A stretch of DNA of 44,030 nt from a virus, in IMG/VR virus record IMGVR_UViG_3300018915_000002, one strand, 5' to 3'. Shown piece after piece: positions 6,001 to 43,431 of this stretch (the first letter of the stretch is position 1; the number at the start of each line of letters is the position of its first letter). A program made the position numbers and the translations under genes. Under the pieces are notes generated by a model. It was not told the origin of the DNA and did no database searches. It saw only the letters and a program-made list of their open reading frames with translations.

Positions 6001-9000
6001 GTCTTCCTGCTTGCCCTCCTCATCCGCAGAAACATTGGACAGGCATTCCAGGATGTCGTCGGTGGGGTGATGAAGATTGTCGGTGGGGTGATGCAAGCTG
6101 TAGACGCGACACGGATCTTTGGTGGAGTAATTCGTGATACGGCATCTAGCGCCCAAGTACAAACCCAAGTGGGTGCTCAAGTTCACCAAGTTCGCCGCAA
6201 AGAATCAGTCCTTGGTATCCGTAACCCCTTTGCTTATTCCCAGAACGAAGATCAGCAGAGACGTGCGACGATGCTTGGGGATGAACGAGTGTCCAAAAGC
6301 AGGGCTGCTTTGCGATATCAAGACGAGATCAATAAGAGCCTGGAGAAAATCACTAAGGAAGAAGAGGCGGAGGTTAAACGGTTGGCGCGATCGCGTAATG
6401 CTCGTGACCAAATCATGGCTTTTGGTGGAAAACTTCAGCGCCCTGATGGGTTCTCGTATGACGTAGCTCCTTTACTTGAGAAGAAGAAGGGGTTGTTTGG
6501 TTTAGAGCGCTTGGAACTGAGTGAAACAGGTCGGGCTAGGGTTGCTGAGGAAGCGAGAAGAAAGATTACATCCCAAGATTCTGACATTGCCAAGCAAACT
6601 CGAATGAGAGCCGCAATGGACTCTGGCTTAGCTACTAGCTTTGTCAAGCATGGTGGAACAATTCCTCCGGATGAAGTCCTCAGGACGCTGGCACAACAAG
6701 GGGATTATGGGGTCACCAACCTCTTGGGTGCCTTTCAAAAAGCAATGGAAAATCTTCATGTTCAGGATTTTCAAGTTGATAAGCTATACGTCGCGGAATT
6801 TTCTCGCCCCAGAAACTTCCCAACTCAAACACCATACAGCCCAGCCGCTTTTGACAACCAGCTAAATAAATTTCAGTCTGACCCTAAATACCAAAAGGAG
6901 GAAGTTATCAAGAAAGGGGTATCCTCCCGTGGGCTTGAAAATCTTTTCTCTAAAGAACTCGCAGCCGCTCACACTCAAATGAAGTCAGCAGCTTATTTTG
7001 CCACTGACTTAACAGCAAGTCTCACCAATGCTTTTAGCGACCTGCCAATTGCCTCCGACAAAGAGATGTCAGAGTACGCCAAGAGACTCGCTGGCAAGAT
7101 GAATAAAAATGAGGAATTTGTAAAAGAACAGAACATAATAATCAACGAATTAATACAAAAACAATTCAAGCAAATTGTCAAGGCTGTTCCTGACTTCAGC
7201 AAAATGGAGGAATCTAACTTGGCTGCACTTAAGGAAGTTCAGCGCAATGTTGAAGGATTTCATCCCGTCGCCACGAATACTGATGTCCTGACCCAAGCTG
7301 TTCGTAATGTGGCAGGGCAAACGCAGTCTGAGGTGGATCAACTAAATAAGACAAGACGCTCTTTCTTTAGTTCACTATTTGGCTTTACCGGAATTCCCCA
7401 ACTCATTGAAAACTTCCAGTACAACCGACGCTTATTCCGTCGTAGCCAACGGATAGCGCGTCGGGTGGAAGAGATGGCAACAGAGGAAAATAAAGAGAGA
7501 GGAGCTACGGCTTCGGCGCGTCAACGTGGACTAGAGGCGTTAATGTCCAATGCTGGATATAGATTCCCAGATCAATCAGTCCAGTTCTATGCTGCTAAGC
7601 AAATTAATGCCCAAGAGCAAGCATTTATTGAATCTTGGATTAAAAATCGCAACTTCAAAGTTGATGTCACTCAACACGAAGCATTCCGTCCGCAAGTGGA
7701 CAAAATACTTGCTAACTTCAAACAACTTTCAACTAATTTAACCCTTAATACTATTGATGATGTTAAAAAGTTCCGACAGACACTTGATGAGGTATCTACA
7801 CAATTAACGAAAGAAGAACAAGCGTCTTTTAAAAAATTGGAACAGTACCTTCTTCATGGAGCATCTGATAAACCGAAGGGTAGTCAAGTATCTTTTAGTG
7901 AACGAGATGATATCTTAGGCGCAATCAATAAAAGCATTGCCAATAACTTAAAAGCCTTTGGCATAACAGGGCAACACAAGGATATCTCCAAGGCTAATTT
8001 TAAAGATCTGCGTGACAAGTATGATGACACGGTTAATCGCCTCACGTCGCGCTTTGTTGGCACTGGGGAATTTATTGCCCAGATTGGGGGTAAGAACGAA
8101 TACATAGAAGGGGCATACAAGGAGCTAGAGAAAAAACTAGGGCTAGGTACGGCAACTGGAGCGTCGTTACGTCAAATCCAGAACATCAAGCTCAAAAACT
8201 CTATTCGTCAGATAGGAGTTAACTTTGGGATATTTGTCGAAGACACCGAAGATCGAGTCACGGAGTTCCGTGACGGGATTTACAAGAAACTTGACAAATT
8301 CCAGGATCGACTAGAAGCTACCCTTCCCTTCCCTAGCTTGGCTCCTCGAATCACCGATCTCCTTCGTCGTCCATTTGAGATGATCTCGAACAATATAGAG
8401 ACTATCTACGCTGCACAGAAGGCAAATATTCAAAATACGGTAAAACAACTTAGATCTGACTTCGTTGGCTCCAACCTTATCAGTCGCATTGACCGCCTTA
8501 ATAAACAGTATAGGGAGGCGAGGGAGGCTTCCTTACAAACTATCTTGCAGTCCTCTAAAGATGAGCGCATCGCTAATTTAGCGCGTCGTGGAGCAGCGAC
8601 TGGGCAGCTAGGGCGAGTCTGGGAAAAACTGAACAAACAGCAATTTACTGACGCTCAATCTGGTCAGACGGTAACAACGCTAATGCGTGGCGCAATGAGC
8701 AAAGAAGCTGTCAGCGCCATGCTAGGGCAAGAGTTGCGACGACAGGGACTCTCAAGAGAACAAGTCTCAACCGAAATTGATAAAGTTCTTAGCCAGTTTG
8801 GGAATCAAACGAGGTATTCAGTCGGTGACATCCTGAAGATGCGGGGACTTGATGTAACTAAGGTATCTAAAGCCCTTGAATCTACTCTCTCCTTACAAGC
8901 CAGTGAAGTTGAGAAAATCATTAAAAATCCCAACTATACGGCTCGCGCTATTGCACCCTTCCAGTGGTTCCTTGTTCGGGATATGCCGGGAATCATTAAA

Positions 9001-12000
9001 GATGCCGCTAAGGGATTTGTTGGCACGATCAATAAAATCGGTGGAGGCGCGATCGCAAAGCTTGCGGGTATCGTTGCGAAAGATATTGCCGTTGGATTCA
9101 AAGGCGAATTCCTCAATACCCTAGCCAAATCGATAAGAACCCTTTCAAATCGCCTTGGAATAGGGGCGAACAATCTCGCATTGGGCATGGAACGGATTGT
9201 TGGGAAAAACCCCTTTAGTGATGCTGTCCGTGGGTTCTCTGACTTTTTAAGGGCAAGAGGGAAGGCGACAGCCGACTTCCTCAAAGCCCAAGCACTTGTT
9301 CCGGATGATACGAGATCGCTTACTAAACTCATCAAAAATCGCACGATTGAGTTATTCAAGGTAATCGGCTCTACCATCCAATCCGCCCAAGCCGCAATCC
9401 AAGCTCAAGGGGGAGGGGTATTTGGGGCTATTCGAGCGCTATTTAGTGGACTTAAAGGCTTCTTTGGAAAACTCTTCAACCGCTCCTCAAACTCTCAAAT
9501 CGCTCAACTCGACAACCAAATTCAACAACAACGCGATCGCGCCGCTAGGGCGAGGGAACGACAGGGACGGGCACAGTCCTTGACTGATAATCGAGTCGAT
9601 CTTTGGGTAAGAGAAGCAGGTCAAAAAACGGCACAACGCCAGTACGATATAGCACGTCAAGCCGATGCTCAAGCGGCTCGATTGCAGCGACAACGATCCT
9701 TAACTGAAAAATTTTCAAATCCACGTTACTCTCCCGCAGGAGGCGATGCGGCGAGGATCGCGGGTAGCTTGATGGGACGCATCGGCAAAACCTATGAAGA
9801 AACAGCGACTAAATTAGGGCAGCGCATCACAGAACTCCGTGATCAAAGAACTGGAGTTCGCTCTCAACGACAAGGAGAGACGCTTGCGGGAGAGCAAATG
9901 TATACACCAAAATCTAGTGGTGGATGGCTGCCCCGTAATTTACGCCTAGATGACGGAGTTGTTTCTTCTACCGAATACATCCAATCCTTAACTACCAAGG
10001 CTTTTACCAAGCTAACTGAATCAGCTCACAGTACAACTTTAAAACTCAGTAACTATTTTAAAAATTCAGCCCTACGCTCAGAGACTGCATGGGAAGAAAG
10101 CGCCAACCACATCACCGGGAAATCGTGGTGGGCAATGACCAAACGCGCAGTCTGGACTGGAGTGAAGATTGTAACAAACCTCAATCATGGTGCCGCTGAC
10201 GTGACGGCAGCAGCTTGGGAACGTTCCCAGCAATCTGTCTCCCAAGACATGCATCAGATGGCACAAACTGCCCAACAGACAGGGCAGCAGATTAGCCAGA
10301 GCATGGGGCAAGCGGCACAAAAGTCCACAGGCTTCCTCTCCCACATAGGAAACAGTATAGGTCGAGTTGGCAAAGCGGGGATGGCGATTGGAGCAAGTGT
10401 TACCGCAGTCGGGTTCGGGGCGCAGACCGCGATGTACTCACTCTCCACTATGGGGCTAATTAGCGAAGAGACATCCCAGCAACTTAATAAATTCTTTGAA
10501 ATCTTCACGCTTATTGGTGCTGTTGGAGGTATCGCCACCCCAATCATTACCGCACTCGCCACCTCCTTCGGTGCCATTGGTTCCCTTGCTCTTGCTGCTA
10601 CAACAGGAGTCGCGGCAATCGGAGGTGCGATCGCGCCTCTCATTGGACTAGGAAGTGTAGCATTTGCCCCTTTCCTAGTGGGCATTGCAGCCGTTGCAGC
10701 AGCGATGGCAGGGTTGTACTTCGCTGTTCGGACTAACTTCCTCGGAATTGGTACGGTAGTCCGAGGAATAGGTAGCTTAATTAGTAACGCATTATCTGTT
10801 CCCATCGGCTTTATCGAATCAGCATGGCAGGGATTTGTAGATAGATTTGGCTCTAAATTGATGCCAATTATTCAACCTGCACTAGATATTGCTCAAGGAT
10901 TAATCAATGCTCTTAATCACAATCCCACCGAAAAGATTCCAGCCGCGTGGGATATTGCTGGAGAAAGAATCAAAGGTGTTCTTGATAGTATCTTAGGGGC
11001 AGGACAGGCTGTTGGCAATGGGTTGGTGAGTTTCTTTACACCAATTGTTTCGCTATTCAATCCTTTAACAAGTCTGTTTAAAAAGAAAGACAAACAGCAA
11101 CCAATAAGTACACTTCCAGAAGTAGAGACTACTCAAGAAAGTCCTGAAAAGGGTGTACTGGGTTCCATCATGGCAGCGATAAAAAGCCTTGTAATGTTGC
11201 CTGTTAATTTAATCAAAGGATTAGCAGACTGGGTGGCAAGTGTTATCACTGGCGTAATCAAAGGGGTTATTACTGCGATAACGGGACCATTGCAGTGGGC
11301 GGCTGAGGCTTTGCGACCACTGCAAATGCCGATCGGACAAATTGAATTGTTCTTCAAGAACCTGGTCAGCATTATCCAGTCGGTTATTTACCTCAATGGT
11401 GTAATGCGCCCTCTAGCGGCCAATGCCATTAGCGTCAATGCCACGATTAATGCGATCGCTCAGTTCTTCTATAGCCTGCGATCACTTATTCAGTCCGTTG
11501 AGTTCCTCTACTACCACGTCTTCAACCGTAAAGCCTTGGTGCAGGGGATGGGACAGGGAGAGGATGCGGTTGATCCAAGTAAGGGACCAACCAACCGTCG
11601 CACTGGAAATAAGTTAAGTGGGGGGTATGTTGAGACGGGTGGAAAGGCGATTCAAGACCTGTCACTAGGTGAAGCCGCGAAAGAATCGGTGGGCTTATTC
11701 AAGAACATCATGAGCATCAAGGAGAATACTGGTGCTGTCTTTGGTGGTTTTAAGACTGGATTAAATTGGGTAGGGAGTGCATGGCAGAACACTTCGAGGA
11801 TGATTAGAGGGGAAACCGGGACTCTTGTTGCCGACGCTGAAGTACAAGGCTACAACTTACAGAAAAATCTCTCCGAAGGTTCTCCGGGTCCAACATTCTG
11901 GATTCGCCAAAATTGGGAAAAGACAACCAAAGCCTTACAGGGGTGGATGGGTGACTTGTCTGGGAAGTCGAAAGAGGCGGGACAAGATATTGCGGCTAAT

Positions 12001-15000
12001 CTAACGCCTGACCCCGTTACACCTACCCCGACAATTTCCCCCGTCGTTGACTCCCCACGTCAAGCAACAGGATTCACCGCCCTAAGGGCGAATGCGATCG
12101 CAGCGGTTAATGCCATCACAGATGAAGTTAGGGCAAGCTACCAGGTATTGCAAAGTAGTGGGATTGGGAATATCGGGGCGCTTATCATCCCCGGCTTATC
12201 CCAGACCGGAAGAAGCGTAAGGATATTGAGCGGAGATTTCTGGGATTTCGGCAAACGTGCCGTCGTTGCTCTTGCGACATTGAATTTCGGTGAACTTTCA
12301 GGGGCAGTTAAAGATCTTGGAGGGAACTTCGGCTACTTCACGCAAGGAGTCCTTCTAGGCTTCAAGCAGATGATTGGTGGGGCAATTGCCTTTGGGATGT
12401 ACACGGTTGCCAGCATCAGCCCCTTCCTTCTCATCTTGGGAGGGGTTGCCTTTGTCGCCGCTGTGATTCTCGCCAACTTCTTGGGTCTACGAACAATACT
12501 AGGTGGTGCATTCCGAATCGGGATTGGGCTGGGGCAAATCTTGATCAGTGTGATTAGTGGCATCGTCAATATCGGGCGATCGCTCGGAATGGTCATTGGT
12601 GGTGTATTCCTAGCAATGCGAGGTGATTTCAGGCTACTGGATCAAGGGATTGCTCAATTCAAGGCTTCATTCCAGGAGATGGGGCGAGGGGTCTTGAGGG
12701 GATTGAGAACCATCCGATCTAGTATTTCTCAAATACTGCGGGGCATTGAAACAGGAATTACCCAAATCTTCCCAATGTTCCCAGCTTGGGTGAATCAGCT
12801 AAAGGGTGTTGCCCGTGCCTTCCGCAATCCAGAACGAGCAGGAGAAATTGCGGCTGAGATTTTAATTGGGGCATTCAATCGAATCAAGAAGGCAATTGGC
12901 GTAATCCCAATGCTCCTTGGTCGTATCCCAGGATTGTTTAGACGCAATCTTGATACTGCAACAACAACAGTCAACCAGTTCGGGGCAAACATTTGGGATA
13001 CGGTTAATCGGACTTATCGATTCTTCCGTACCCTGACATTCAAAGGGATCGTCAAGCGCTTCACCACGGAATTCCGTGACCTCCCTCAATTCCTCGGTCG
13101 AATCCCAGGACAGTTAGCTACCAAAATTGAAGAGGCGATTCCTGCACTGAAGGCTCCTTTTAATTACCTAAGAGGATTCATTCGTGGGTTTGTCAGACGC
13201 TTAGCCCAAGAGCTACCTCCAAATATCGTCAAAGCCGTATCCACCTCCTTGCAGGCAGGGACAGCGAAAGTCCGCCTAACCCTTGCCACCCTGTCGGGGC
13301 AACTCATTAGTGCTTTCCGAGAGCTTGCGACTCGACTGGGGCTAGAAGAGCGCTTCAACCGAATGATTCAGAAAGTGAGTGATCGCTGGAAGGGCTTTAC
13401 GGCGTGGGTAAAGCAAGGGAATCTATTTAATTGGGTGCCAAGAACTACTCAAGAGGTTTCTGATTTATTTGTTGCGACTATTAACAAAATAGAATCCGCA
13501 TGGAATCGCTTCACTAAATGGCTCGGTGTCACGACACTATTCCCCAGTCTGTTTAATCAGCTAGAGCGAGTAAGTCGTGGATTTTCCGGCTTAATGAAGT
13601 CCTTAGATCGTAAGTGGAGTGAACTGAAGATCAAGTTCGGAGTACCTGTTTTTACAGGGTTCTTTGAAAGCTTGCGTGGACTCGGTACGAAATTTATCGA
13701 CATCATTAGTGACATCGCAGGACATTGGGAGAAGTTTGCTAAACCGTTAAAACTGCCACTTCTACAAAACTTCTTTACCGAAGTCGCTCTCCTTGGCGAA
13801 AAATTTAACCATGTCGTCAGTTTCATCGAGAGGAAATGGAAGGGTTTAGCTACCTTCATCTATACAACCCCACTAATCTCTGGGGTCATGCAAGGGTTGG
13901 AGTATTTAGGAAGTAAGTTCAATGAGTTAATTCTCTTCGTCCAGCTCAAGTGGAAGCCGTTTGTCAAGGCTATATCTTCCGCTCAATTCTTCCCGAATGC
14001 TTTTAAAGAACTGCGGAAGCTGGGAGCCGCAATTCCTGGTTTAAAAACAACAATACAAAACGCATTACAGGACATTCCACAAACAGCCACTCGTGTTTTC
14101 AATAGATTAACTGAGTTAGCAACGGCAGCTATCAATAAAGTTAAAAAGCTATTTTCTAATATCTTTGGAAGGCAAAATGTAGGGGCGATTGAGGGACAAC
14201 CCAACCTCAAATCTCCTTTGGTTGGGGCTGTTGATCACATACAAGAACGATGGGAACGGTTTGCGAAATCGTTTAAGTCCATCCTTGAACCTATTACTGG
14301 ATTTGCTCGTCGGGTTGCCGACAAATTAATCAAGGCATTGAATTGCTCACCGACAGTTGTGATTCCTAATGCTTGGGAAAATGCGGTCAACAATATTACT
14401 TCTACATTACAGCTATTAATTGAACCCTTCCGTCGAGTAGGGAAATTCATTGTAAATACATTTGGCTTTGCCTTTGAGTTTGTAGAGAGTTTATTTAGCT
14501 CTTTTTATAAGGCAATTTCTCCTGGAATCGAGAAGATTTTAGCTTCTATTAAAAGAATCAAGCAGGGAGCAGTCGCCGCCGACGAAATAGGCTCTTTATT
14601 CCAGGGGATATCAGGTTATCTTGAGCGCTTAAAAAATGCCATTAAGCCCGTCACCCAGTTGTTTGACAGATTCTCCAAGAAGATGAACGCTTCGACCGCT
14701 GAAGGTCAGCAAGCTTTAAGCATGGGAGAAGGGCTAGGTCGAGCTTTTGGACAACTCACCATTTTCCTTACAAAGTTCACGCTTCAAGCGATTCCTCCAC
14801 TACTCAAGGTACTAGCAATCATTGTTCGGATAACGGTTGAGATTGCTGTATTTGCTGCCAAAGTTGCTTATGCCTTGCGATTTGTCATTAACTACTTCAC
14901 GCGAGTAGGGTTTTCAGTGGCTGACACGATTGCGAGTATTACTCGTTTTGTTCGTAGTACCAGCAAAGCAACGGATCAAGTTCGAGGTGCATTTAACAAG

Positions 15001-18000: not shown

Positions 18001-21000
18001 CGAGGAGGCATTGTAATTGGGGGCATTATCCTCAACTTCATTCTGCTCCCCATTCGGCTAATCAACGCCACGATTTACGGCATCTCGATGGGTTTCCATT
18101 CCGCCATGATGGGTGTAAATCAAGCCGTCAACAACCTTCTCCTTATGCCATTGAGTATTGCCATTGGGGTGGCATACGAGGTGGCATCGGCGATCGCGCA
18201 AGTTGGACAAACCATCACGAGGTTTATACTTGCGCCCTTCTTCGCGATTCAAAATGCCATCATGAGGGCGATTAGTCCGGTCGTGGACTTTGTGATGCGA
18301 TCAATTGGAATGATTGCTGGGGCTGCCGCCATCATCTTCACCGTACTGAATCCCGGACTTGTTATCGGGACGTTCATTGCCTTTGTTACCGGAGCAACAC
18401 TTGCTGCACGAGCCATTCAATTTATCCTCGGACTGCCACTTAAGGCGATCGCATTCTTATGGAAAAATACAGTCGGCAAGATTTTAGGCATTACCCAAGG
18501 ATTTGTAGAATCAACAAAAGGCTTTGGAGAACAGCTTAAGATCTTCCTCACTGATCCTACGGCTGCAATTCGAGAAAGCTGGAAGTCAACGATTGAATAT
18601 ATTCAATCCAAGTTATCTGAGCTTGGTATTACAGCGAGGGCAGAAGGACAAGATGTTGCCCGCTCACTAACGCAGGCCCTCCCTGGCACTCAAACGCCCA
18701 GACTACTTGCAGGGACAACGACTCCACCTGCACCGAGGATTTCTCCAGCTCCTCAGCTTGATGCCCATCTGCAAATGTTGGGGTTGAAGCAAGCGCCTCA
18801 AGATATGGCTGAGTTGAAGAGAGCTTATCGTCAGCAATCTAAAATAGCTCATCCAGATGCAGGTGGGGATGCAGAGCAATTCCATCGGGTGCAGAATGCC
18901 TATGATCAACTCAAGGCAAATATGGAATCTCCAACACGGAGTTCCGTGGTAGACACCGCCCCAATTGAACAGGTAGCGAACAAGGTTGGAACTTTATCAG
19001 AACGGATGAGGGGTTTAGGCTCCGGTTTCGGCTCAACTCTTTCCTCAATGGGTGGTGCCATTTCAAACTTCTCCCCTCAACTTGCCGCGCCATTTTTCAT
19101 CCTGAGTGACTTTATCGATGCGATATTGAGCGTAGAGGGCTTGTTACCAGGATTAAAGGCTTTCTTCGCCGGGAAGAAGGCAGCAGCCGTTGCTGATGCG
19201 GCTGTAACGACGGCTGCTAATGGTGCGATCGCATCCTCCAATCTACTTGTTGCTGGCACTTCCGCTTCTACGGCATTAACGGTTACGACGGGAGCCGCGA
19301 CTTCCGCGACTGCGGTAACAACGGAAGCGACGGCGGTGGGAGGAGCCAACAGTTTTATGGCGGCGACGTATGGAATGTTGGCAAATGCCGCACGTTGGGC
19401 TTATAGCCAAATCCTGCTACCGATCCTGCCCCTACTTCCTGCGATATTGGCAATTGTTGCAGTAGTAGGTCTTCTTTACCTCGCATTCAAGACCAATTTT
19501 CTTGGGATTGGAGATGTTATCCGAGGGGTGGTAGGCGGATTCCTCATGGTATTCGGCGTGGTCTGGGGAGTGATGAAAGGAGTATGGGATGCGATCGCCG
19601 AGGTGTTTGGAACCCTACTCAGTTCGTTTGGCGAGATCTTTTCGGCACTGAAAGAACTGGTGGGTGCGATCATGGCTCCCTTCGCTCCTCTGTTTGCGCT
19701 GTTTGGAGGAAGTGGATCAGGGGGTGGCTCACTAGGCGATGCGATTAATGCGACGGTAAAACTCATCCTTCTTCCCGTTAAACTGGTTGCTGATGCTCTG
19801 TCTTGGGTAATTCGAGCCATTACCTTCTTAGTGGTTGGAGCGATCAAGCTAGGTACAGCAATCGTCACCAAAGTTCTTAGCCCCATCACCCAAGCACTAA
19901 GCTTCCTTGCACCTGTGGTTCGACTGATTCGGACGGTCTTAGGGGGTATTGTCGGTGTAACCGCAGGCGTTGTCGTCCTGATTGGATTAATTGGCTTTAT
20001 TGCAACCGTACTCGTTCCTTTAATTGTTGCTGGGGCTACAGCGTTATTCGGCATGGTCATCTCTGGGATGACGTTTTTGATTACGGCAGCCATCCCGGTA
20101 CTGATTCAGGGATTGATTACAGTCGCAACAGTTGCGATACCACTACTGATTAATGCCTTCTTGTTCATTGCGACTGTGGCGATACCTGCAATTATTAGCG
20201 GATTGATTGCGATCGCCACCACTGCCATCCCACTAATCATGGCCGTTTTATCTGGCTTCATCCCCTTTGTTATGGCGGGATTTGCGTTTATCATCACAAC
20301 GATCATCCCTGCTGTTGTCGCTGGATTAGTATTCATCGCCACAGTGGCGATACCAGCAATCATCAGTGGAGTTATCGCCCTAGCTACTGCCGCTATCCCA
20401 TTACTGATTACATTCGCCCCAATCATCCTTGCAGTGCTAGCTATTGTTGCTGCGGTGTGGCTCTTAAAAATAGCCTTTGACTTTGTGTTCAAGAAGATTG
20501 CGGAATTCATTCCTTTTGCCGTGCAAGGATTTCAGCGTATTGCACCAATTATCCTGAGTCCGTTTGTGAAGTTATGGGAGTTGATTAAAAATGTCATCAG
20601 CGGGATTGGCAGCTTTTTTGGCAACATCGTTTCAGGTGTTAAAAACTTCTTCCAGAACATACCCTTAGTTGGTCGGTTATTTGGAGGAGGGCAATCAAAT
20701 GAAGGAAAAAATGAGTCCAATATTCAAGAGTTTGCAGGTGGAGGTTTAGTACAAGGACCAGGGGGGCAAGCCGTCCCAGTGGTTGCTCACGCTGGAGAGT
20801 TTGTTGTTAATCCAGAGGCAACTCGCCTAAACATAGGGGTACTAGAATACCTGAACGAAGGTGGGCAGTTAGCACTACCAACTCCTGGCGTGGGCATTAT
20901 GCCACCGATGCCCTTGATACTGCCTATTCCAGTTATTGTGCCAGTGGAGGGAGCAGGTAGTGGGACAACAGTGATAGTTGAGAATTTGAATGTAAACTTT

Positions 21001-23236: not shown

Positions 23237-24645
23237 TGCTAAACCCAGATCTCATCCTCCAACTCCAAAGCCAACTGGCGTTCGCTTCCACAGCAACTCG
23301 TGAATACCTTCAGTCACGGAGTTCCGTGGTCGAGGAGGAAGATGTGACTGAAGTAAACGATGATCCGTCCTCGGCAATTGAGGCGGCGCAGGGACTAGTT
23401 GAACGCGCAGAGGAATGGCGTGAAGTCCCCGTTGTACGAGACGCAACAGGACGATTTGCTTCAAAAGCCGCCTCTTCGGACGTAAAGGAGACAGATGAGG
23501 TGGAGGAGGTGGAGGAGGCAAGTGAGCCTGACCCACCGCTCATCCCAGTAGAAAAAATCCTTCAAGAGAAAGCAACGACCTTCTCCGCAGGCTTGAAGAG
23601 GTTTGAGAAGGAGCAGATTGAGATGGTGAATGAAACGATACTCAGTCGCGCCACAGATCGCATCAAGGATATAGCGGAACAACGCAAAGGGCTAGCAAGC
23701 GATCTAGTGGATATGATGTTTGGGAAATACGCCAAACAAGCCCGTAAGCAGCTTGCTGACTTGTGTAAGCCGATTAATCCCGACCTAAGCAAAGGGATTG
23801 AAGAAGACCCTTACGAAGAGGTTTCAGCGGACATCAAGCGGCTAACCCGACAAGCTAGCCTAGGAAATACCAAAGCTTTGATGCGTGACCTCCCAAAAGC
23901 CTTCCAGTATACAGTTGCGAAGTACAACAAGACTGTTGACGATCTTTCAAACGCAACTGGAGAGAACGCGGATTTAATGCACGCGGCAGGGAAGGCGGTT
24001 GCCCTTACAGTTCCGATCACGACATTCCTTGCCGCAAGCTTTGGTGCAGCAGCCGTTGCTGGGGTACTTACTCATGCGATCGCTGTTGCACCAATTTTTG
24101 CGGCTGGAGGAGCCGCCGCTGGTGCAGCAAAATTGGCAACTGGGATAGTGGTTGGCACAGCGGCGTGGAAAGTTAAGTCTAAATCGATTGAGGAAGGGCT
24201 GGATATTTTAGAAGTTGATAATAAGTTCACCCGGAAATTTCTGAAGTGGGCAACATTCCTTGCGGGAGATCTATCTATGTTGCCTACGCCCAATCCCCTT
24301 TCCTTGCCATCCACCTTATATGAACCTGGAACAGCATTGGATGCTCTGTCCGGTCTTGGTGAGGCTAGCAAAGCCGCATTTATGGGCGTAATTAACATCA
24401 CAGGGGAAGACCTACTGAACTTTGCCGTATTCCCAACATTAAATGGGATATTTGGTGATGCCTTGGCACCAGGGCGTAACCTCAACGGAAAAAGCTACTC
24501 CCAAATGAGGGAGTTGAAACGTGCGAGGGAAAAAGCTCAGAAGACGCTTAAAGAGATCAAGAAAAAGGCTTCCGACTACAACGAACAGTTTGATGAAGCC
24601 ATGTTAGCTTTACAAGAACTCCCCGATTTGGAGGTGGCAGCTTGA
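23236..24645 (+). CDS. Hypothetical protein, shared-leader paralog family (copy 3)
   Basis: 469 aa; TAATG coupling; EEWREVPVVRDATGRFAS; Ala/Gly-rich hydrophobic hairpin. Confidence 0.85.
   Translation: MLNPDLILQLQSQLAFASTATREYLQSRSSVVEEEDVTEVNDDPSSAIEAAQGLVERAEEWREVPVVRDATGRFASKAASSDVKETDEVEEVEEASEPDPPLIPVEKILQEKATTFSAGLKRFEKEQIEMVNETILSRATDRIKDIAEQRKGLASDLVDMMFGKYAKQARKQLADLCKPINPDLSKGIEEDPYEEVSADIKRLTRQASLGNTKALMRDLPKAFQYTVAKYNKTVDDLSNATGENADLMHAAGKAVALTVPITTFLAASFGAAAVAGVLTHAIAVAPIFAAGGAAAGAAKLATGIVVGTAAWKVKSKSIEEGLDILEVDNKFTRKFLKWATFLAGDLSMLPTPNPLSLPSTLYEPGTALDALSGLGEASKAAFMGVINITGEDLLNFAVFPTLNGIFGDALAPGRNLNGKSYSQMRELKRAREKAQKTLKEIKKKASDYNEQFDEAMLALQELPDLEVAA
23315..23328. repeat. Palindrome CACGGAGTTCCGTG (in paralog 3)
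   Basis: Perfect consensus. Confidence 0.85.
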
Positions 24646-27335: not shown

Positions 27336-27346
27336 TATTTAAAGAT

Positions 27347-29121: not shown

Positions 29122-29135
29122 CACGGAGTTCCGTG
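29122..29135. repeat. Palindrome CACGGAGTTCCGTG (between convergent stops)
   Basis: Perfect consensus; fills most of a 17-bp intergenic gap. Confidence 0.85.
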
Positions 29136-29136: not shown

Positions 29137-29634
29137 TCAAGACGCGACTTGGAACGCCTGATTCCAGAGTTGCCTAATGTCAACGGCATTACTGCCTTGA
29201 GTACGCGCTACGGGGGCAAATTCACGAACTTTCGTAGGCGTAGGCACTAGCGTTTCTTCCTGGAGGATGTCCTCCACCGCTTCACGCAAATACTTCGACA
29301 TCGTTGTCCCCTTCAGGTGGCAAAAAAGCTTGAACTTCTCCTTTGTTTCGGAGTCGATCAGAAACCTGATGTAGGAATCCGCTTTTTGAAGCCTCTCTTC
29401 GTAGTATTTTGTCCGAACCCCTTGTTTTGAGTGGGGTTCCATTGGCCCCTTTTTAACCAATTTAGGTAGATTAGCTCCTTCAAGCGCGGCGATCACCACG
29501 CCCGTCAAAAGGTCAGTCATCTTCCCGTGAGGACGGGCTTTTTTAAACTCGTCTTTCAAATAAGACGGGATACGGATACGGATATCGTCGTCTAGCATAG
29601 TGGGACTTCTGTATATTACATCTTGTTGCCACAT
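29137..29634 (-). CDS. Tandem ribbon-helix-helix DNA-binding protein
   Basis: Two RHH-like units: IRIRIPSYLKDEFKK...MTDLLTGVV and IRFLIDSETKEKFKLFCHLKGTTMSKYLREAV. True start may be ATG 29598. Confidence 0.7.
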   Translation of the reverse strand: MWQQDVIYRSPTMLDDDIRIRIPSYLKDEFKKARPHGKMTDLLTGVVIAALEGANLPKLVKKGPMEPHSKQGVRTKYYEERLQKADSYIRFLIDSETKEKFKLFCHLKGTTMSKYLREAVEDILQEETLVPTPTKVREFAPVARTQGSNAVDIRQLWNQAFQVAS

Positions 29635-29774
29635 TGTAACTCAAAAAGGTACGCGGTGAACAGTATCCAGATCTGTCAATGGACTGAACCGTGTTCATAG
29701 AAGGAACTGGCAGAGGATTTGTTCCAATATATTTCAGCCATGTTTTCTTGAGCCACGGAACTCCGCGCCAAACT

Positions 29775-31479: not shown

Positions 31480-31689
31480 TCACGGAGATCCGTGGCAGGG
31501 TGCCTTGTCATCGCCATCAATTTGACAACCTTCGTGGCTGTAGCCAATGAATCGGTCATTGACATACATGTATGCCCAGCGCTGGCTAGGCGAAACAACT
31601 AGTTTTTTGCCGCAAACCAAGCAGTAATTTCCTGGTGGGCGAGTCAAATATTCGTCTGAGAAAGCTTGCCCATCAAAGCGGCTAGGCAT
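31480..31689 (-). CDS. Small CxxC/HxxC putative Zn-binding protein
   Basis: 69 aa; TAATG coupling to the upstream gene; CLVC...HEGC. Confidence 0.6.
   Translation of the reverse strand: MPSRFDGQAFSDEYLTRPPGNYCLVCGKKLVVSPSQRWAYMYVNDRFIGYSHEGCQIDGDDKAPCHGSP
31481..31494. repeat. Palindrome CACGGAGATCCGTG
   Basis: Perfect consensus, upstream of the DUF932 promoter. Confidence 0.85.
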
Positions 31690-33225: not shown

Positions 33226-33274
33226 TTCATTGCGGGGTGGAAAAGCGACTCGGCAGTTTTAACTGCCGTAAATA

Positions 33275-33679
33275 CTAGGAATGGTGTGGGTCATTAATGT
33301 ACTCAGTAATTTTAGCGGTAGTCACTTTACCCGTAGTGTCATAGAAATAAGAATGCGTCCAGAGGGTAGGTAGCTTAAGTAGATGAGGGAACTCTTTTCT
33401 AAGTAACCGAGATGAACGCCCTTTGAATGCCTTTACAACTGAGTTAATTGGTGTTTTTGGGTCGTACTCCACCAATAAGTGAACATGGTCTGGAGCGATT
33501 TCCATAGCCCTTATAATCCATCCCTTTTCTACTGCTACATCCGTAAGAATCTGACTTAACCTAAGCCTGACCTCTCCAACGAGGACAGGCTTTCTGCGTT
33601 TAGGTATCCAGACTAAATGGACATTTGCCATTCCCACTGAATGTCTAGTGCGGTTGTATTGCCGTTCTTGGGTATTCAT
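33275..33679 (-). CDS. tnpA: IS200-type Y1 HUH transposase
   Basis: HLVWIPKRRK, DHVHLL (HUH), KGRSSR, LW..SY, EYI. Confidence 0.95.
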   Translation of the reverse strand: MNTQERQYNRTRHSVGMANVHLVWIPKRRKPVLVGEVRLRLSQILTDVAVEKGWIIRAMEIAPDHVHLLVEYDPKTPINSVVKAFKGRSSRLLRKEFPHLLKLPTLWTHSYFYDTTGKVTTAKITEYINDPHHS

Positions 33680-33742
33680 TTACTTAGAAATGCGGTACAC
33701 TCTTATTGTATATAAGTAACGTCCTTCAACAGGAGCAAGTTT

Positions 33743-35125: not shown

Positions 35126-35311
35126 TGAGTAGCAAGTTGCGAGCAAGTAAGCGTTGCCGAAAGCAGGAAATGTCAGTTTTCCTCAGAGCAATTCTGCCTG
35201 AAAGTCTTCAAGAAGTAAGGGAGTCGAAGGCAACAGGTCAAACGAAACCTTATGTATTGAAGAACCCCCGTTTTTCTAAAACGGGGAGTTCTCAGACCAC
35301 GGAACTCCGTG
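35126..35311 (+). ncRNA. Predicted TnpB omega/reRNA (right-end scaffold plus flank-derived guide 35296-35311)
   Basis: Inferred from established TnpB biology; 5' boundary unknown. Confidence 0.5.
35298..35311. repeat. Palindrome CACGGAACTCCGTG (abutting the IS right end)
   Basis: Perfect consensus. Confidence 0.85.
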
Positions 35312-35312
35312 C

Positions 35313-35636
35313 CTAAACATCTGGCAATTCTACCGTTTTTCCTGCGAGTGAGTGAGTGCAGTCGTCGAGGAAGCGAATCATGCCATCTTCCACAAAACTG
35401 TGGCACCGGAAGATCAGTTCCCCACTATCCTTTTGTGCCTTGGCATTAATTGAAGGGAAGAAGGTCGGTTTATCGAAACTGCCTGTAAACGCCCAGGAGG
35501 CTCCCATCGCATTCTTGTAGGGAGAGATGTAAACTTCGTGGCTCATCCCACAGCCAGGACAGTCGAACATATAGGCGACTGTCTTGAGTACGCCATTCTC
35601 TTCATCTGGTTCCTGGATGGATAGTAGTTTAGCCAT
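35313..35636 (-). CDS. DUF6527-like Zn-binding protein
   Basis: FDCPGCGMSH, W.FTGS.DKPTFFPSI, CHSFVEDG.I.FLDDCTHSLAG. Confidence 0.75.
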   Translation of the reverse strand: MAKLLSIQEPDEENGVLKTVAYMFDCPGCGMSHEVYISPYKNAMGASWAFTGSFDKPTFFPSINAKAQKDSGELIFRCHSFVEDGMIRFLDDCTHSLAGKTVELPDV

Positions 35637-35700
35637 GTTTAGATCGTGTGTAGCTCTCGTTCAGTCTATACACAGCCTACACACAGAGTAAACACCATCT
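35636..35700 (-). repeat. ~65-bp 5'-UTR repeat element, copy A
   Basis: Ungapped 52/65 identity with 36838-36902. Confidence 0.8.
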
Positions 35701-36139
35701 AACTCACCGAATCCGCAAATGCGATCGCCATCCGCTTGCAGTCGTCCAATGTTTTGGCTTTGAAGCCAATGGGAAGGGAGCGATCAGCTTCTGGATGTTC
35801 TTTCAAATACGCCTTAGTCCAACCGGAAGAGGCTGTACAATCCCCCTTTTTAACAACGTCTCCGACACTGAAGCCACACAAAGCCCTATGACTCCAGCCG
35901 TACCACTGCTGTCCTTCAGCAGAAAACCCGATGGAGCAAACTTGGTTACCGGGAATGCATTCAGGCTCAATTCCTAACCCATAAAGGAAACCAGCAGTAT
36001 CAAGGTCGCCAATATATTCACCCTTCTGGGTATACGTTGATTCCACTTCTACGGGTTCATCTTCCCCGTAAGTTAATTTTTCCTTCCTAATTTCAAACCC
36101 TCTAGCGTCTTGCCGTGACTCAATTACATCTCGCTGCAT
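35699..36139 (-). CDS. Hypothetical phage protein
   Basis: 146 aa; CSIGFS...WYGWSHRA.CGF.VGD...MAIAFADSVS. Confidence 0.75.
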   Translation of the reverse strand: MQRDVIESRQDARGFEIRKEKLTYGEDEPVEVESTYTQKGEYIGDLDTAGFLYGLGIEPECIPGNQVCSIGFSAEGQQWYGWSHRALCGFSVGDVVKKGDCTASSGWTKAYLKEHPEADRSLPIGFKAKTLDDCKRMAIAFADSVS

Positions 36140-36422
36140 TCGCCTCTTTAGCCTCCATCAATTGTTCCACCACATATCCGTCTTCCAGTAGTGCGTGAGA
36201 GCAGATCCCATACATACTGAATGTTGATTGCCCCCTGTACAATTCCACCAGTTTTGTCCGTGCCCTCAAGTATTCGAGGTCATACCGTGAGGCGACCAGC
36301 CTCACGGCTTGATAAAAATCGTGGCAGCTTATCGCGTCCCACACCGGATCGTAAGCAGGGTTTCTTCTTGGTAAATCTAAAAGCCCTTTAGGTAGGACAA
36401 AATGGCTAATCTTCATTGTCAA
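36120..36422 (-). CDS. Hypothetical protein
   Basis: 100-aa ORF overlapping its neighbours in the operon. Confidence 0.6.
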   Translation of the reverse strand: MTMKISHFVLPKGLLDLPRRNPAYDPVWDAISCHDFYQAVRLVASRYDLEYLRARTKLVELYRGQSTFSMYGICSHALLEDGYVVEQLMEAKEANAARCN

Positions 36423-36792
36423 TAATGCAATTCTTCTTCAATTCTTCAAAACCTTTGGCAATTTGGTCAAGCTTGTCATCCTCCTCCTCTTCAAGGGCAA
36501 TTAGCTCGTTCCTCGCCTGAGTCTTTACCAGCAGCAGTTCATTGAGCTTCATGTGGGTGGCTCGTGAATCTCTAGCCTGAGTATTCAACAGAGCCGTTGT
36601 TGTGATCCAGGTGTAGATGGTCGTGAAGGTATTGATGATCAGTTGATGAGTATTGGTGAATCCATAAATCAGTCCGGTCACAAGCCAAACGATTAGGATG
36701 CCAATGTTGATCATCATCGCGATAGGAGAGGCAAGCCAATTTGTCAGTGTGCGACTAAACCGTGTGAAGCGATTACCAATTGTTCTAAGCAT
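36406..36792 (-). CDS. Low-affinity iron permease family (Fet4-like) membrane protein
   Basis: W.VTG..YGF.NT.QLIINT.TTI.T......NTQ.RD..A.H.KL.ELL.....ARNELI.LEE signature; AAGGA RBS. Confidence 0.85.
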   Translation of the reverse strand: MLRTIGNRFTRFSRTLTNWLASPIAMMINIGILIVWLVTGLIYGFTNTHQLIINTFTTIYTWITTTALLNTQARDSRATHMKLNELLLVKTQARNELIALEEEEDDKLDQIAKGFEELKKNCIIDNED

Positions 36793-36837
36793 GTAATTCC
36801 TTTAAAAGTCGCCACGGGACTCCGTGTCCAGAACATC

Positions 36838-38681: not shown

Positions 38682-38760
38682 TGTTGCTACGCTCTTTTAT
38701 GCTGGCTTCAATTCCCCTGCCACTAAGCTTCGCTATAGTGGCAGTACCCTTTCAGCTATT

Positions 38761-39438
38761 TCAGATGGAATGTAAATCTTCTAATTCACATAAGTCCTTC
38801 TGAGTTTTCAACTCAGAAAATTCGTTTTTTAACAGAGGAACTGTATTTTTAAAGATTTGGACTAGTTGAGGGCTAAGAGAAAATCGCTCTGTATTTATTT
38901 CAATGCTGCGGTAGATGTCGCCATCACGATGTCTAGCGACAGCACAAATCCAGTCAACCAGCATCTCAATCACATCAAACAAGTTCATGTTATTCACAGA
39001 TGAGCAATACTCTTTTTGCTTTGTTCTCAAGAACTCCTGCATCTGCTCATATCCGTGTATGTCATCAGGCAAGACTTGGGCATTATCAATTGCCCACTGT
39101 GCCATTAGAAGATAGGTATTAATTGATTCACTCTCAGGGCAAGGCTGAAAAAACTCTGGATGGTGACGGTTATGAGCGTAGTGATTGTCTAGGGCTGGTT
39201 TCATCCCCTCTAAAAATCCTTTGTATTCCTCGCTACCGTATGTGCTAGTCGCTAGCTTAGGCGTATATTCGGTGAAGACCGAAACCTCAGGAGCAATCAA
39301 TTTGGTTCTATCGTGGGTAAACTGCCGACGCATCAACTCAATTTGGGCGCTGCCGAGCAACTGCATGACCAAATCAATGTGCTTCCAGGTCTCGGCGTTA
39401 GTGGCTTGTTCAGCTTGTGTTAATTCGTGTTCAGTCAT
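38761..39438 (-). CDS. DUF5662 / HD-like putative metal-dependent phosphohydrolase
   Basis: ATG at 39438. KHI...HDRTKL...YGSEEY...HYAHNRHHPEF...MNLFDVIEMLVDW. Stop codon supplied by the IS end. Confidence 0.75.
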   Translation of the reverse strand: MTEHELTQAEQATNAETWKHIDLVMQLLGSAQIELMRRQFTHDRTKLIAPEVSVFTEYTPKLATSTYGSEEYKGFLEGMKPALDNHYAHNRHHPEFFQPCPESESINTYLLMAQWAIDNAQVLPDDIHGYEQMQEFLRTKQKEYCSSVNNMNLFDVIEMLVDWICAVARHRDGDIYRSIEINTERFSLSPQLVQIFKNTVPLLKNEFSELKTQKDLCELEDLHSI

Positions 39439-39480
39439 TGTATAGATCGTGTGTAGGGTATATGCAGGCTGCACAGAGCC
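39439..39480 (-). repeat. 5'-UTR repeat element, shortened copy C
   Basis: CTACACACGATCTATACA (39439-39456) matches copy A at 17/18 and directly abuts the ATG. Confidence 0.7.
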
Positions 39481-39490
39481 TGTACTTGGA

Positions 39491-41020
39491 CTAATTGAGA
39501 ACTCGATACAGGTTTTCTTGTCTTCCTCCGTAAACGGCATTAACAGCTTCAATGCCGTCCTCCCATCTGAATTTGTGCTTACCAGATGAATTAGAAAGAA
39601 CCTTTGCACAACCAGGGGCAGAGCAAACCCCAATGTGCTTTCCAGGCTGAATCCAGATGTCTCCCGGCACTGCTTCTGCTCTAGTGATCTTTCTCCCTCG
39701 TCCACCAGTAAGTGCAGCTTCACAAGCGGCTACAGCGACAGGTACTCCCCAAGGCTCAATCGGAGCGCCTAGCATCTTCAATCCAGCAGGAATGATGCAA
39801 AATTTGTTCAAAGCATAAGCACAGCCGTTCCTACCTCCATCGGGTCCCGCAGCCGTATCAGCCTCTCTATTCGATTGCGCCGCTGCCCAAATCTTGGCAG
39901 GAATGTCTCCAGCAGCAGGAGCAGGTTGAGCGGCATCAGCTTGAGCTTGTTGCCCTGCGGCAATCTGTCCCGAATCACCTACTCCAAACACCTGGGGCTT
40001 AGGAGCATTCGGATCTGGTCTGTAGGCAACTAAATCGGCTTCTAGAGTGCGCCCAAAATAAAAAACAACCTCATCGACGGTAAAGGTTCCGTCAAGATCT
40101 TGCCCAAAGCCCTTCCCCTCAAACGTCACCTGAGCATCCAGTTTGAGAATGTCCGGCTGAGACGAAACATCAAGAGCGCACCTTAATATGTGCGATCGCT
40201 GGTTATCCAATGCCTGGATGCCGAGGGCATAGGAGAGGGCATCAAGTGGGGTGGTGGCTCCCGTTGCATTGAGAGTGCGCGTGGTTCCATCCCCTGTATC
40301 GATGCAACCTAGTCCGTAGTTGGAGGGCATGGGAGCTGCACCGACGGCAGTGGGGTCTAATCCGGATTTGAAGTAGGCGACTGCTTTCTGGCAAGCCTCA
40401 AGATAATGGCGAGTACCTGGTTGAGTGGTTCGGTGGACAAGTCCAGGGCTACCAGCATTCACGATACTGCGACAGTTTGCCCAATCCCCTTTTTCGGCAT
40501 AAGGGCGAATGTCTTTGTTCCCTGGTCCCCCACTCCAGTACCAGCAAGATATTTTGGCAGACAGTTCGGTGTCTTGAAGAATAATATCTGGATTATTAAC
40601 TACATCTACACCGAAAACCTTCTTTATCATCTGATACAGCTTTAGGTGCGTTGCTTGGATGAATCCTCGACCACGGTAAGGATCGTATTGACCCGTATAC
40701 TTGCTCGTGCCTTCTTTTTGGTTTTTAAAAGCACATTCCACGGCGATTGTGGTCAAAAATCCAACAAGCTGATTCTTGCTGATCATGTTTGCCGCCACCA
40801 TTGCCTTAGCAACAATGGGCCAGTTCTTCTCTACATCCTTGCGATTGACGTGTCCTCGGTAAACCGCCATGATGTCATCCACGCTCGGATAGAGCGCAGG
40901 AGCAGGTTTTGCCTGTGTTGTCCCACTAGCTCCCGCAGGGGTTGCGGAAGTTGCACCGGGAGTAGAAACCGCAGGCGTGGTAGGGCTTTGTGACGGTGCT
41001 AAAGGCTTGGTTTCAGGCAT
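39491..41020 (-). CDS. Virion-associated peptidoglycan hydrolase: GH19 lysozyme + baseplate-hub-like segment + NlpC/P60-like peptidase
   Basis: GH19: VEC..., YRGRGFIQAT, NNPDII, CWYW, IVN. Hub-like: GFGQDLDGTFTVDEVVF. NlpC/P60: GCAYALN...PGDI...HIGV...SNSS. Confidence 0.8.
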   Translation of the reverse strand: MPETKPLAPSQSPTTPAVSTPGATSATPAGASGTTQAKPAPALYPSVDDIMAVYRGHVNRKDVEKNWPIVAKAMVAANMISKNQLVGFLTTIAVECAFKNQKEGTSKYTGQYDPYRGRGFIQATHLKLYQMIKKVFGVDVVNNPDIILQDTELSAKISCWYWSGGPGNKDIRPYAEKGDWANCRSIVNAGSPGLVHRTTQPGTRHYLEACQKAVAYFKSGLDPTAVGAAPMPSNYGLGCIDTGDGTTRTLNATGATTPLDALSYALGIQALDNQRSHILRCALDVSSQPDILKLDAQVTFEGKGFGQDLDGTFTVDEVVFYFGRTLEADLVAYRPDPNAPKPQVFGVGDSGQIAAGQQAQADAAQPAPAAGDIPAKIWAAAQSNREADTAAGPDGGRNGCAYALNKFCIIPAGLKMLGAPIEPWGVPVAVAACEAALTGGRGRKITRAEAVPGDIWIQPGKHIGVCSAPGCAKVLSNSSGKHKFRWEDGIEAVNAVYGGRQENLYRVLN

Positions 41021-41117: not shown

Positions 41118-42050
41118 ATGCCTAGCTCCTACAGAGACATAGTGGCTTATGGAGACTTTGTCCTTCCCCACATCACAGAAGGAGTGTTGTTACGGGTTGG
41201 GAGGGGCAACAAGGTAGAAGGGATGTTGCTTACTATTGGGGCAATTCCAGAACTTAACGATCACCTCAATAGAAAAATTGAGAAGATCAACGGGAGGGCA
41301 GGATTGGAAATTCTCCTTGCCCCAGAGGATGTTGGAGCAATAGCGATCGCAAATAACCTCTCAGACCTAGCGAATATTGCCCAAGCACGGATTAACCTGG
41401 GGCTAAGAAGTGCAGCATTGCGAGAGGCAGGGGAATTTGAATTGGCAGGGGCAGCCCTAAGTGCAATTGCCTCACTTAAGACGGAAGTTGGGCTAATTAC
41501 AAATTCACAAATTGCAATTGGGCGAAACACTGCAACAGAACGGCTAGAGGTATTCGGTGGAAACATCAAAATTCTGCGTGATACCACAAATAAGGGTGGC
41601 TACCTGATCTTCCAAAACCTAGCAGCTTCCACCACCATTTCCCACTATCTGTGGTACTCGCCGACTTTGGGAGTGCTGCGAAGACTTTCAGGAGCAACCG
41701 CCCCAGCTAACTTAGATGCAGATGGAGGTTTTGCCAACTGCAATCCCCCTGCCAATACTCAAGTTCTTACCGCAAGCTCCACGATATCCGTACAAAGCGA
41801 CATCCTTCCAGTTAGCGCAAACACAGCCATCACTTTGATTTCAACACCAGCCATTCAAGTGAGCGGAATGAGCGATGGGGCTTTGATCAAGATCTTAAAT
41901 ATTGGTTCCAACAACATTACGTTTCAGGGGAGAAATATTTTAATGAATTCTGGCGTTTCATTAGGAGCCAGTAGCACAAAGGCATTAGTCCCTAACCAGT
42001 TCCTACAGTTCATGTTTTTCAAAGGCATCTGGTATTTAGGGGGTGCTTAA
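41118..42050 (+). CDS. Putative tail fibre / receptor-binding protein
   Basis: ANNLSDLANIAQARINLGL fibre motif; IAIG..TATERLEVFGGNI beta repeat; beta-rich C-terminus. Confidence 0.7.
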   Translation: MPSSYRDIVAYGDFVLPHITEGVLLRVGRGNKVEGMLLTIGAIPELNDHLNRKIEKINGRAGLEILLAPEDVGAIAIANNLSDLANIAQARINLGLRSAALREAGEFELAGAALSAIASLKTEVGLITNSQIAIGRNTATERLEVFGGNIKILRDTTNKGGYLIFQNLAASTTISHYLWYSPTLGVLRRLSGATAPANLDADGGFANCNPPANTQVLTASSTISVQSDILPVSANTAITLISTPAIQVSGMSDGALIKILNIGSNNITFQGRNILMNSGVSLGASSTKALVPNQFLQFMFFKGIWYLGGA

Positions 42051-42056
42051 AGCGCC

Positions 42057-42070
42057 CACGGAACTCCGTG
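42057..42070. repeat. Palindrome CACGGAACTCCGTG
   Basis: Perfect consensus, 12 nt upstream of GTTACAAT. Confidence 0.85.
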
Positions 42071-42113
42071 CAGAGGAAAGTCGTTACAATCAAGAAAATC
42101 ACGGCACAAGGTA

Positions 42114-42353: not shown

Positions 42354-42371
42354 CGATCGCTCCCTTAAAAC

Positions 42372-42409
42372 AAAAAATCCATCACGGATCTTCGTGATGG
42401 ATTTCTTTT
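42372..42409. terminator. Bidirectional terminator between convergent genes
   Basis: AAATCCATCACG-GATCTT-CGTGATGGATTT with A/T tails; its apex is a variant of the 14-bp palindrome (42383-42396). Confidence 0.75.
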
Positions 42410-42421
42410 GAGGCTAGGCTA

Positions 42422-43369: not shown

Positions 43370-43417
43370 GTTTTTGCCTTAATCCACTTCTTTTATTGTA
43401 ACAAATAATAAACCCAC

Positions 43418-43431
43418 CACGGAAGTCCGTG
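43418..43431. repeat. Palindrome CACGGAAGTCCGTG
   Basis: Perfect consensus, 15 nt upstream of the minus-strand GTTACAAT. Confidence 0.85.

Follow-up and report, generated by a model that had tools for sequence, protein, structure and literature searches.

A dispersed 14-bp palindrome selected at the nucleic-acid level in a ~243-kb cyanophage-like element

Background

The Cluster O mycobacteriophages carry a 17-bp dyad repeat, TGTTCGG-N3-CCGAACA, which was described by Cresawn et al. in 2015 and whose function is unexplained, its authors having proposed a dimeric DNA-binding protein (PMC4351075). Here we analyze a stretch of 44,030 nucleotides (hereafter "the window") from the IMG/VR virus record IMGVR_UViG_3300018915_000002, along which a 14-bp palindrome with the consensus CACGGAGTTCCGTG is dispersed. 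The palindrome is real and specific to the viral element; it is under selection as nucleic acid, and one relative keeps copies at corresponding positions. The first-pass annotation, made from the letters of the window, did not recognize the motif, and we likewise found no description of it; its kind, however, has a precedent in the Cluster O repeat (PMC4351075). That repeat is the closest known system, and the palindrome is a second, unrelated case of the same unexplained kind. Both repeats have invariant arms with few one-mismatch copies (3 in Cluster O, 4 here), a biased variable centre (TTT/AAA in 29 of 34 copies there; here 9 of 13 copies have GT or, on the complementary strand, GT read as AC) and many copies spread over the genome (here 13 in 44 kb), in short intergenic gaps as well as inside open reading frames (ORFs). 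In both cases positions are conserved among relatives, the host (here the likely host lineage) lacks the repeat and the orientation trend is no more than slight. They differ in sequence, in the length of the arms (7 bp in Cluster O versus 5-6 bp here) and of the spacer (3 bp versus 4 or 2 bp), in the size of the genome (~70 kb versus ~243 kb) and in the host, which is here a cyanobacterium. Moreover, the copies in the window favour stop codons, whereas many copies in Corndog lie near the 5' ends of genes, and recombination between repeats, seen in Cluster O, was not detected here, as judged from the breakpoints in the tape-measure gene.

The Cluster A phages (L5, Bxb1) possess stoperators, i.e. 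more than 20 copies of a 13-14-bp site, many of them in short intergenic gaps inside operons, which are served by one phage protein (PMC9283540, PMC6550527). Stoperators are asymmetric and bound by a two-domain monomer, and their orientation is strikingly correlated and required for the block of transcription (PMC9283540). The palindrome resembles them as a 13-14-bp site repeated through a phage genome with many copies in short intergenic gaps, but its arms are perfectly symmetric, the asymmetry is confined to the central 2-4 bases, and the orientation bias is not significant (of the unambiguous copies, 6 have GU and 2 have AC as the sense-strand centre; binomial p ~0.29). The stoperator analogy drawn in the first-pass annotation breaks down on the asymmetry that defines these sites.

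Two further networks may be regarded as functional analogies, matS-MatP and KorB/ParB. The matS site (GTGAC-N3-GTCAC) is a 13-bp palindrome with 5-bp arms, dispersed also within genes, and its dimeric reader MatP has a ribbon-helix-helix (RHH) domain and organizes DNA. The likeness to the palindrome lies in the dispersal, the 5-bp arms, the copies inside genes and, possibly, in a reader of the RHH type, for which a candidate is described below. The differences are that matS is chromosomal, restricted to one macrodomain and without a bias towards gene ends, and that in the candidate reader, a tandem TraY-like protein (P0023), a coiled coil of the MatP type was not seen. KorB loads at OB sites, which are 13 bp long, number about 12 on 60 kb and lie in some cases far from promoters. 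A report on plasmid RK2 presents KorB as a sliding clamp that depends on CTP and acts in the silencing of genes over long distances (PMC11790492). The OB and parS sites are, like the palindrome, palindromes of similar size dispersed on a mobile replicon; an association with stop codons, as seen for the palindrome, is not known as a feature of KorB.

Results

Copies of the palindrome, their sequence and spacing

The pattern CACGGA-NN-TCCGTG is found in the window in 9 perfect copies and 4 copies with one mismatch, and every coordinate reported in the first-pass annotation proved exact. Dinucleotide-preserving shuffles give 0.00 perfect and 0.07 one-mismatch copies. Copies with two mismatches are absent (~2.3 expected), so the family is sharply bimodal, and half-sites outside the full palindrome are not in excess (CACGGA, 18 with ~10 expected; TCCGTG, 15 with ~9 expected). 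The stems show neither G-U pairs nor compensated variants across the copies, and the flanks have nothing in common past the 14-mer save a purine that follows it. Spacing among the 9 perfect copies is more even than random (coefficient of variation 0.39, P=0.009), which is not true of all 13 copies together (P=0.13). A copy-free stretch of at least 8.3 kb opens the window, and another of at least 9.9 kb lies in the tape-measure gene of a relative. The gaps of 4.4-5.9 kb noted earlier between 8 and 29 kb are correct, while the regularity that they suggested is only moderately supported and is interrupted by long empty stretches.

Positions 1-21126(+) of the window are the 3' 21.1 kb of a single tape-measure ORF, which holds four of the copies. 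The entire tape-measure protein (P0007) comprises 7,320 aa and is encoded on a 242,584-bp contig, a ~243-kb cyanophage-like element of filamentous cyanobacteria. The copies are as follows:

8259..8272, perfect, CACGGAGTTCCGTG; inside the tape-measure ORF, encodes (V)TEFR(D)
9828..9841, one mismatch, CACAGAACTCCGTG; inside the tape-measure ORF, encodes (I)TELR(D)
13065..13078, perfect, CACGGAATTCCGTG; inside the tape-measure ORF, encodes (T)TEFR(D)
18935..18948, perfect; inside the tape-measure ORF in the other frame, encodes TRSSV
23315..23328, perfect; inside ORF 23236-24645(+), encodes SRSSV
29122..29135, perfect; fills the 17-nt gap between the convergent genes 27305-29119(+) and 29137-29634(-)
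29754..29767, one mismatch; upstream of the tandem-RHH gene, 9 nt past a separate canonical terminator at 29806-29777(-)
31481..31494, perfect; last four codons (HGSP) and TGA stop of the 69-aa ORF 31480-31689(-)
35298..35311, perfect; 1 nt past the stop of 35313-35636(-) (DUF6527), with the right end of the insertion sequence ISa 1 nt off on the opposite side
36813..36826, one mismatch; precedes the ATG at 36792(-) by 20 nt and lies outside the insertion sequence ISb, ~120 nt from its right end
42057..42070, perfect; 6 nt past the stop of 41118-42050(+)
42383..42396, one mismatch; between convergent genes, where it forms the tip of a hairpin that is terminator-like in both directions
43418..43431, perfect; within the spacer 43370-43512, resembles a terminator on the minus strand

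Copy 29122 lies 2 nt and 1 nt from the flanking stop codons and has a T-run on neither side, and copy 31481 is extended by a longer stem and a T-run on the minus strand.

Selection inside genes

Five copies are situated inside ORFs. In the tape-measure gene they read VTEFRD, ITELRD and TTEFRD in one frame and TRSSV in another, and in ORF 23236-24645 the copy reads SRSSV; translation thus bears out the two reading frames (TEFR and RSSV) reported before. Five peptides compatible with the motif in any frame occur in the ORFs of the window, and all five are written as the motif, four of them perfectly. Under the codon usage of the tape-measure gene the chance of obtaining the palindrome is 0.0056 for xTEFRD and 0.0002 for TRSSV. 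The same gene encodes three T-[DE]-[FLIV]-R peptides in all, each of which is a motif copy.

The positional comparison at the DNA level covers one relative and the tape-measure gene only. This relative, IMGVR_UViG_3300018916_000037 (hereafter G405), is a contig of 21.6 kb that consists entirely of tape-measure gene, with 62% identity at the C-terminus. When up to two mismatches are allowed, it has exactly two matches, each of them CACGGTTCTCCGTG, which lie 6.3 kb apart, and both occupy the codons orthologous to copies 9828 and 13065 (ATVLRD and VTVLRD in G405 versus ITELRD and TTEFRD in the window). The local protein identity at these two sites is 32-36% with a 126-aa query and 37-39% on shorter high-scoring segment pairs (for 9828, 32% and 39%, respectively; for 13065, 36-38%). 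At the ortholog of 8259, in contrast, the local identity is 62% and the peptide AEFRE is kept, but its codons, GCA GAG TTT CGG, form no palindrome. Since the peptide at 8259 persists without the palindrome, while at 9828 and 13065 the palindrome persists in a diverged context, the palindrome does not arise from conservation of the peptide; together with the codon-usage odds (at most 0.0056) this rules out a peptide repeat of the tape-measure protein. The core conserved across both genomes is CACGG-N4-CCGTG, and the preferred centre differs per genome, the loops at the orthologous sites being AACU and AAUU in the window and UUCU in G405. The earlier proposal that it is the nucleic acid, rather than the peptide, that is under selection is therefore supported by the five of five compatible peptides that encode the motif, by codon odds below 1% and by the comparison with G405.

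Comparison at the protein level extends this picture to further sequences. At 13065 both P0008 and P0009 have ITEVRV, which is motif-compatible, and at 8259 P0008 has ITGFRD, one mismatch off compatibility. Sites 9828 and 18935 have been lost in the P0008/P0009 lineage, where 18935 reads SQYPV and SQNTV, and the segment around 18935 has no counterpart in P0010, P0011 or G405. Two of the six homologs of ORF 23236 are motif-compatible (P0001 with SRNSV and P0002 with PRSSV); P0003, P0004 and P0006 are not. Thus, the in-gene sites are partly conserved and partly labile. L214, with 27% identity, contains neither HIP1 repeats nor an enriched palindrome and is too distant to be informative.

Searches for further relatives gave little. 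Megablast and tblastn found none among GenBank phages; a single-protein scan of viral contigs yielded no relative's DNA, and alignment scans with ORF 23236 of metagenome, viral and genome collections recovered none. The exact 14-mer gave only scattered single matches across viral contigs, and the back-translated pattern IPAL.APF retrieved from metagenome and viral contigs chance matches only, in addition to the already known G405 contig.

Absence from the host lineage and contrast with HIP1

The window contains 35 copies of HIP1 (GCGATCGC) versus 0.5 expected; such an excess is a signature of cyanobacterial DNA. The TnpB protein of one of the insertion sequences (IS) in the window is 81-88% identical to copies from Coleofasciculaceae and Microseira, on account of which genomes of this likely host lineage were chosen for the host test. 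The palindrome has 0 copies in five genomes of the IS-donor lineage (43 Mb). Of 401 genomes from the order to which the host probably belongs, 12 carry one copy each and the others none, and the GT/AC centre does not occur among these copies; a reversed pattern, used as a control, is about equally frequent. The density in the window is 4-5 orders of magnitude above this host-lineage background. A host repeat, which an equal frequency in the host chromosome would have indicated, is thereby rejected for the lineage searched, and the motif is specific to the element.

The distribution of HIP1 provides an internal control for that of the palindrome. In the window 34 of the 35 HIP1 copies are coding, and in the tape-measure gene 19 of 22 fall in one codon phase; G405 has 23 HIP1 copies in 21.6 kb. 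Outside the giant gene, eight of the nine copies of the palindrome avoid sense codons or overlap a stop, where non-coding DNA makes up 8.6% (p=2.6e-8), in agreement with the earlier claim that copies in this region lie at gene boundaries. Because the 14-mer is placed oppositely to HIP1 and is absent or at chance level in the cyanobacterial genomes searched, a host palindrome of the HIP type can be ruled out as well. A formal test of stop proximity gave 3 of 8 copies versus a background of 11% (p=0.048), a count that misses the stop-overlapping copy 31481. The position at gene ends can be explained by the scarcity of non-coding room together with avoidance of ribosome-binding and promoter elements, and it fits a role at the RNA level equally well.

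Insertion sequences, terminators and recombination joints

Copies 35298 and 36813 lie near the right ends of two IS200/IS605 elements. ISa spans ~33203-35296, with its right end 1 nt before copy 35298, and its copy in Microseira diverges exactly at this end and lacks the palindrome. The right end of ISb (...GAGGATGTCAC), mapped with independent genomic copies, is ~120 nt away from copy 36813. The terminal hairpins of the two elements (CCCCG...CGGGG and CTGCCRCTA...TAGYGGCAG) differ from the palindrome. An IS200/IS605 end, a repetitive extragenic palindromic (REP) unit with its REP-associated tyrosine transposase (RAYT) or an omega-RNA feature is ruled out, as both right ends were mapped without the palindrome and the copies share no flanks. 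Two side observations concern ISa. The flank that would be read by the omega-RNA guide of its TnpB begins with C-CACGGAACTCCGTG-C, a sequence that recurs along the phage, and an identical 16-mer is present at 42056-42071; this TnpB might cut at other copies of the palindrome, depending on the target-adjacent motif (TAM). The 76-bp segment at the left end of ISa (33203-33278) is present more than 20 times in a Microseira genome.

As RNA, the core of the palindrome forms a hairpin of -5.9 kcal/mol with a 5-bp stem and a 4-nt loop, and 10 of the 13 copies have no T-run. Copy 29754 follows a separate terminator with a 13-bp stem, so that at this site terminator and palindrome are distinct elements. 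A general intrinsic terminator is ruled out by the T-runs at only 3 of the 13 copies, the weak core, the five copies inside ORFs and the separate terminator at 29754. Searches of Rfam gave zero family matches anywhere in the window. Recombination joints in the tape-measure gene were rejected too, because the identity change-points relative to six relatives miss the four in-gene sites (percentiles 0.1-0.7).

A candidate reader

The gene bracketed by copies 29122 and 29754 encodes a candidate for the protein that would read the palindrome:

P0023, 29137..29598, minus strand, 153 aa; PF10723 in the precomputed annotation, TraY/AvtR-like tandem RHH protein, candidate reader

The alignment and the AlphaFold model of P0023 show two strand-helix-helix units in tandem, with a predicted local distance difference test (pLDDT) score of ~80 in this part, followed by a C-terminal helix. 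Foldseek identified chains of TraY from the F-plasmid relaxosome as the top matches (probability 1.0, template modelling (TM) score 0.57-0.63), with AvtR lower down, and the profile search returned SvtR and ParG; further weak matches are to RelB, DUF6290 and a phage repressor. TraY, AvtR, SvtR and ParG are RHH DNA binders, of which TraY and AvtR are single-chain tandem forms. The genomes of the host lineage contain only distant single-RHH matches to P0023. A promoter-like site of the P0023 gene is located at 29660-29633(-). The predicted fold and its position thus make P0023 a candidate reader of the palindrome. Domain annotation of the ORFs of the window revealed no gene of the ParB/KorB family, no repressor of the gp71 type was found in the window, and Pfam and PHROGs searches with the remaining small ORFs did not find a DNA-binding domain.

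Genomic neighborhood

The relatives of the tape-measure protein are 6,300-7,600 aa long and carry PF10145. A weak match to the J-domain (PF00226) is seen in P0007 at about residues 6258-6305 as counted in the window, and it is also present in the precomputed annotation of several relatives. The tape-measure gene is followed on its 3' side by ORFs with no family match or with weak matches to tail families and then by a leftward block, which comprises DUF932, two IS200/IS605 elements (TnpA and TnpB), DUF6527, Tad6, DUF5662 and a GH19 lysin-like protein. The ORF 35699-36139(-), between both IS elements, matches Tad6, an anti-Thoeris protein, over the full length (PF25188, E=7e-48), and its neighbour 36406-36792(-) resembles low-affinity iron permeases. 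The DUF5662 ORF (38761-39723(-)) seems to continue into the left end of ISb (38700-38760), and ISb may have inserted at or within the 3' end of this ORF. At 43400-43470 terminator-like hairpins stand back-to-back on opposite strands, in a spacer that is "divergent" according to the ORF calls; the gene calls across 42.4-44 kb may be incomplete.

Discussion

What could recognize such a site? The invariant arms, the lack of compensated or wobble variants, the specificity to the element and the genome-specific centre indicate that the reader recognizes the sequence itself. A DNA-binding protein, dimeric or pseudo-dimeric, is the reader favoured by the twofold symmetry of the site, by its presence within genes and by the copy that stands next to a separate terminator. 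On these sequence features we put at about even the chance that the palindrome is a docking site for a sequence-specific DNA-binding protein that is encoded by the element and would act as a dimer or pseudo-dimer; the protein nature of the reader, its recognition of double-stranded DNA and the outcome of binding are all things that we infer. One protein unit would contact each CACGG arm. Sites would be placed wherever the genome tolerates them, mainly in the few non-coding bases past stop codons, and in the 22-kb gene, which lacks such room, at places where the protein accepts T-x-[FL]-R-D or R-S-S-V. The bound protein might then act genome-wide, either by silencing or roadblocking or by organizing or segregating the DNA. 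Perhaps the palindromes even constitute a lattice of loading or anchoring sites along the 243-kb genome for a DNA-organizing or silencing protein of the phage, RHH or ParB/KorB-like. We regard this extension as rather speculative and on balance unlikely; it would imply a need so strong that sites are carved into a 22-kb coding sequence and maintained there across deep divergence.

Several observations weigh against a protein-docking site. The biased centre (GT/AC in 9 of 13; sense GU in 6 versus 2, not significant) is not needed by a purely symmetric dimer, and a strict spacing rule is not supported. Three of the 13 copies form the tip of terminator-like hairpins (31481 on the minus strand, 42383 on both strands, 43418 on the minus strand), and four of the eight non-coding copies overlap a stop codon or sit at most 6 nt away (29122, 31481, 35298, 42057). 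The link between P0023 and the palindrome is one of adjacency only, many genes ending in a copy, and copy 29754 lies ~95 nt upstream of the promoter-like site of the P0023 gene, not over it. The stop codons (overlapped or 0-6 nt away), the three hairpins followed by T-runs and the tendency towards GU on the sense strand would suit a function in RNA, where a transcribed hairpin might be read by a phage RNA-binding protein or endoribonuclease in the manner of REP or Cas6 targets, or might serve as a 3'-end or translation-termination element. We consider such a function improbable, given that the core hairpin is weak and in most copies lacks a T-run, that the stems are without G-U or compensated variants while copy 9828 would have an A-C mismatch in the sense RNA, that the loops differ at orthologous sites, and that the orientation bias is not significant. 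Moreover, five copies occur within ORFs, and four of these share a single 22-kb mRNA that must be transcribed in full, and copy 29754 comes just past a separate strong terminator.

A target of a DNA enzyme, be it a crossover site of a site-specific recombinase, a site for a nicking or homing nuclease or a modification site, perhaps with exchange of gene cassettes at the boundaries, would account for the 6-2-6 layout with its preferred non-palindromic central dinucleotide, an architecture that resembles the crossover sites of serine recombinases, and for the sites at gene boundaries. The Cluster O phages provide a parallel in their repeat-flanked indels (PMC4351075). Here, however, the identity breakpoints among the six tape-measure relatives do not fall at the four in-gene sites, the G405 copies (CACGG-TTCT-CCGTG) break the 6-2-6 symmetry, and no recombinase or nuclease gene turned up in the window save the IS transposases, whose hairpins differ, all of which makes an enzyme target decidedly unlikely. 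Least of all do we expect a self-propagating repeat, REP- or HIP-like, that owes its dispersal to a Y1 transposase of the IS200 type or to biased repair and has no function for the phage; its probability seems to us very small. Two IS200/IS605 elements in the window with a copy near the right end of each, HIP1 as an example of iterated palindromes accumulating in such DNA and a common GT/AC centre that could stem from a single copied source all speak for it. Against these stand the IS right ends, which exclude the palindrome, the Microseira copy of ISa without it, the different IS hairpins, the 13 copies with no common flanks beyond the 14-mer, a distribution opposite to that of HIP1, and the two in-gene copies kept in position across deep divergence, which is unexpected of a mobile repeat.

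The docking-site explanation can be approached experimentally with a defined 14-mer, a candidate reader and two conserved in-gene sites, at which the need of the nucleic acid can be separated from that of the protein by synonymous changes. New in this analysis are the host-absence controls, the contrast with HIP1, the codon-level evidence, the conservation of in-gene sites at orthologous positions, the exclusion of IS elements and the candidate RHH reader. The Cluster O dyad repeats have been unexplained since 2015, and a second, unrelated case makes the phenomenon general. If the reader does organize or silence the 243-kb genome, the palindrome would shed light on how phages manage genomes of very large size, and if its copies form a lattice of loading or anchoring sites, it would be a virus-encoded counterpart of the matS, parS and KorB networks.

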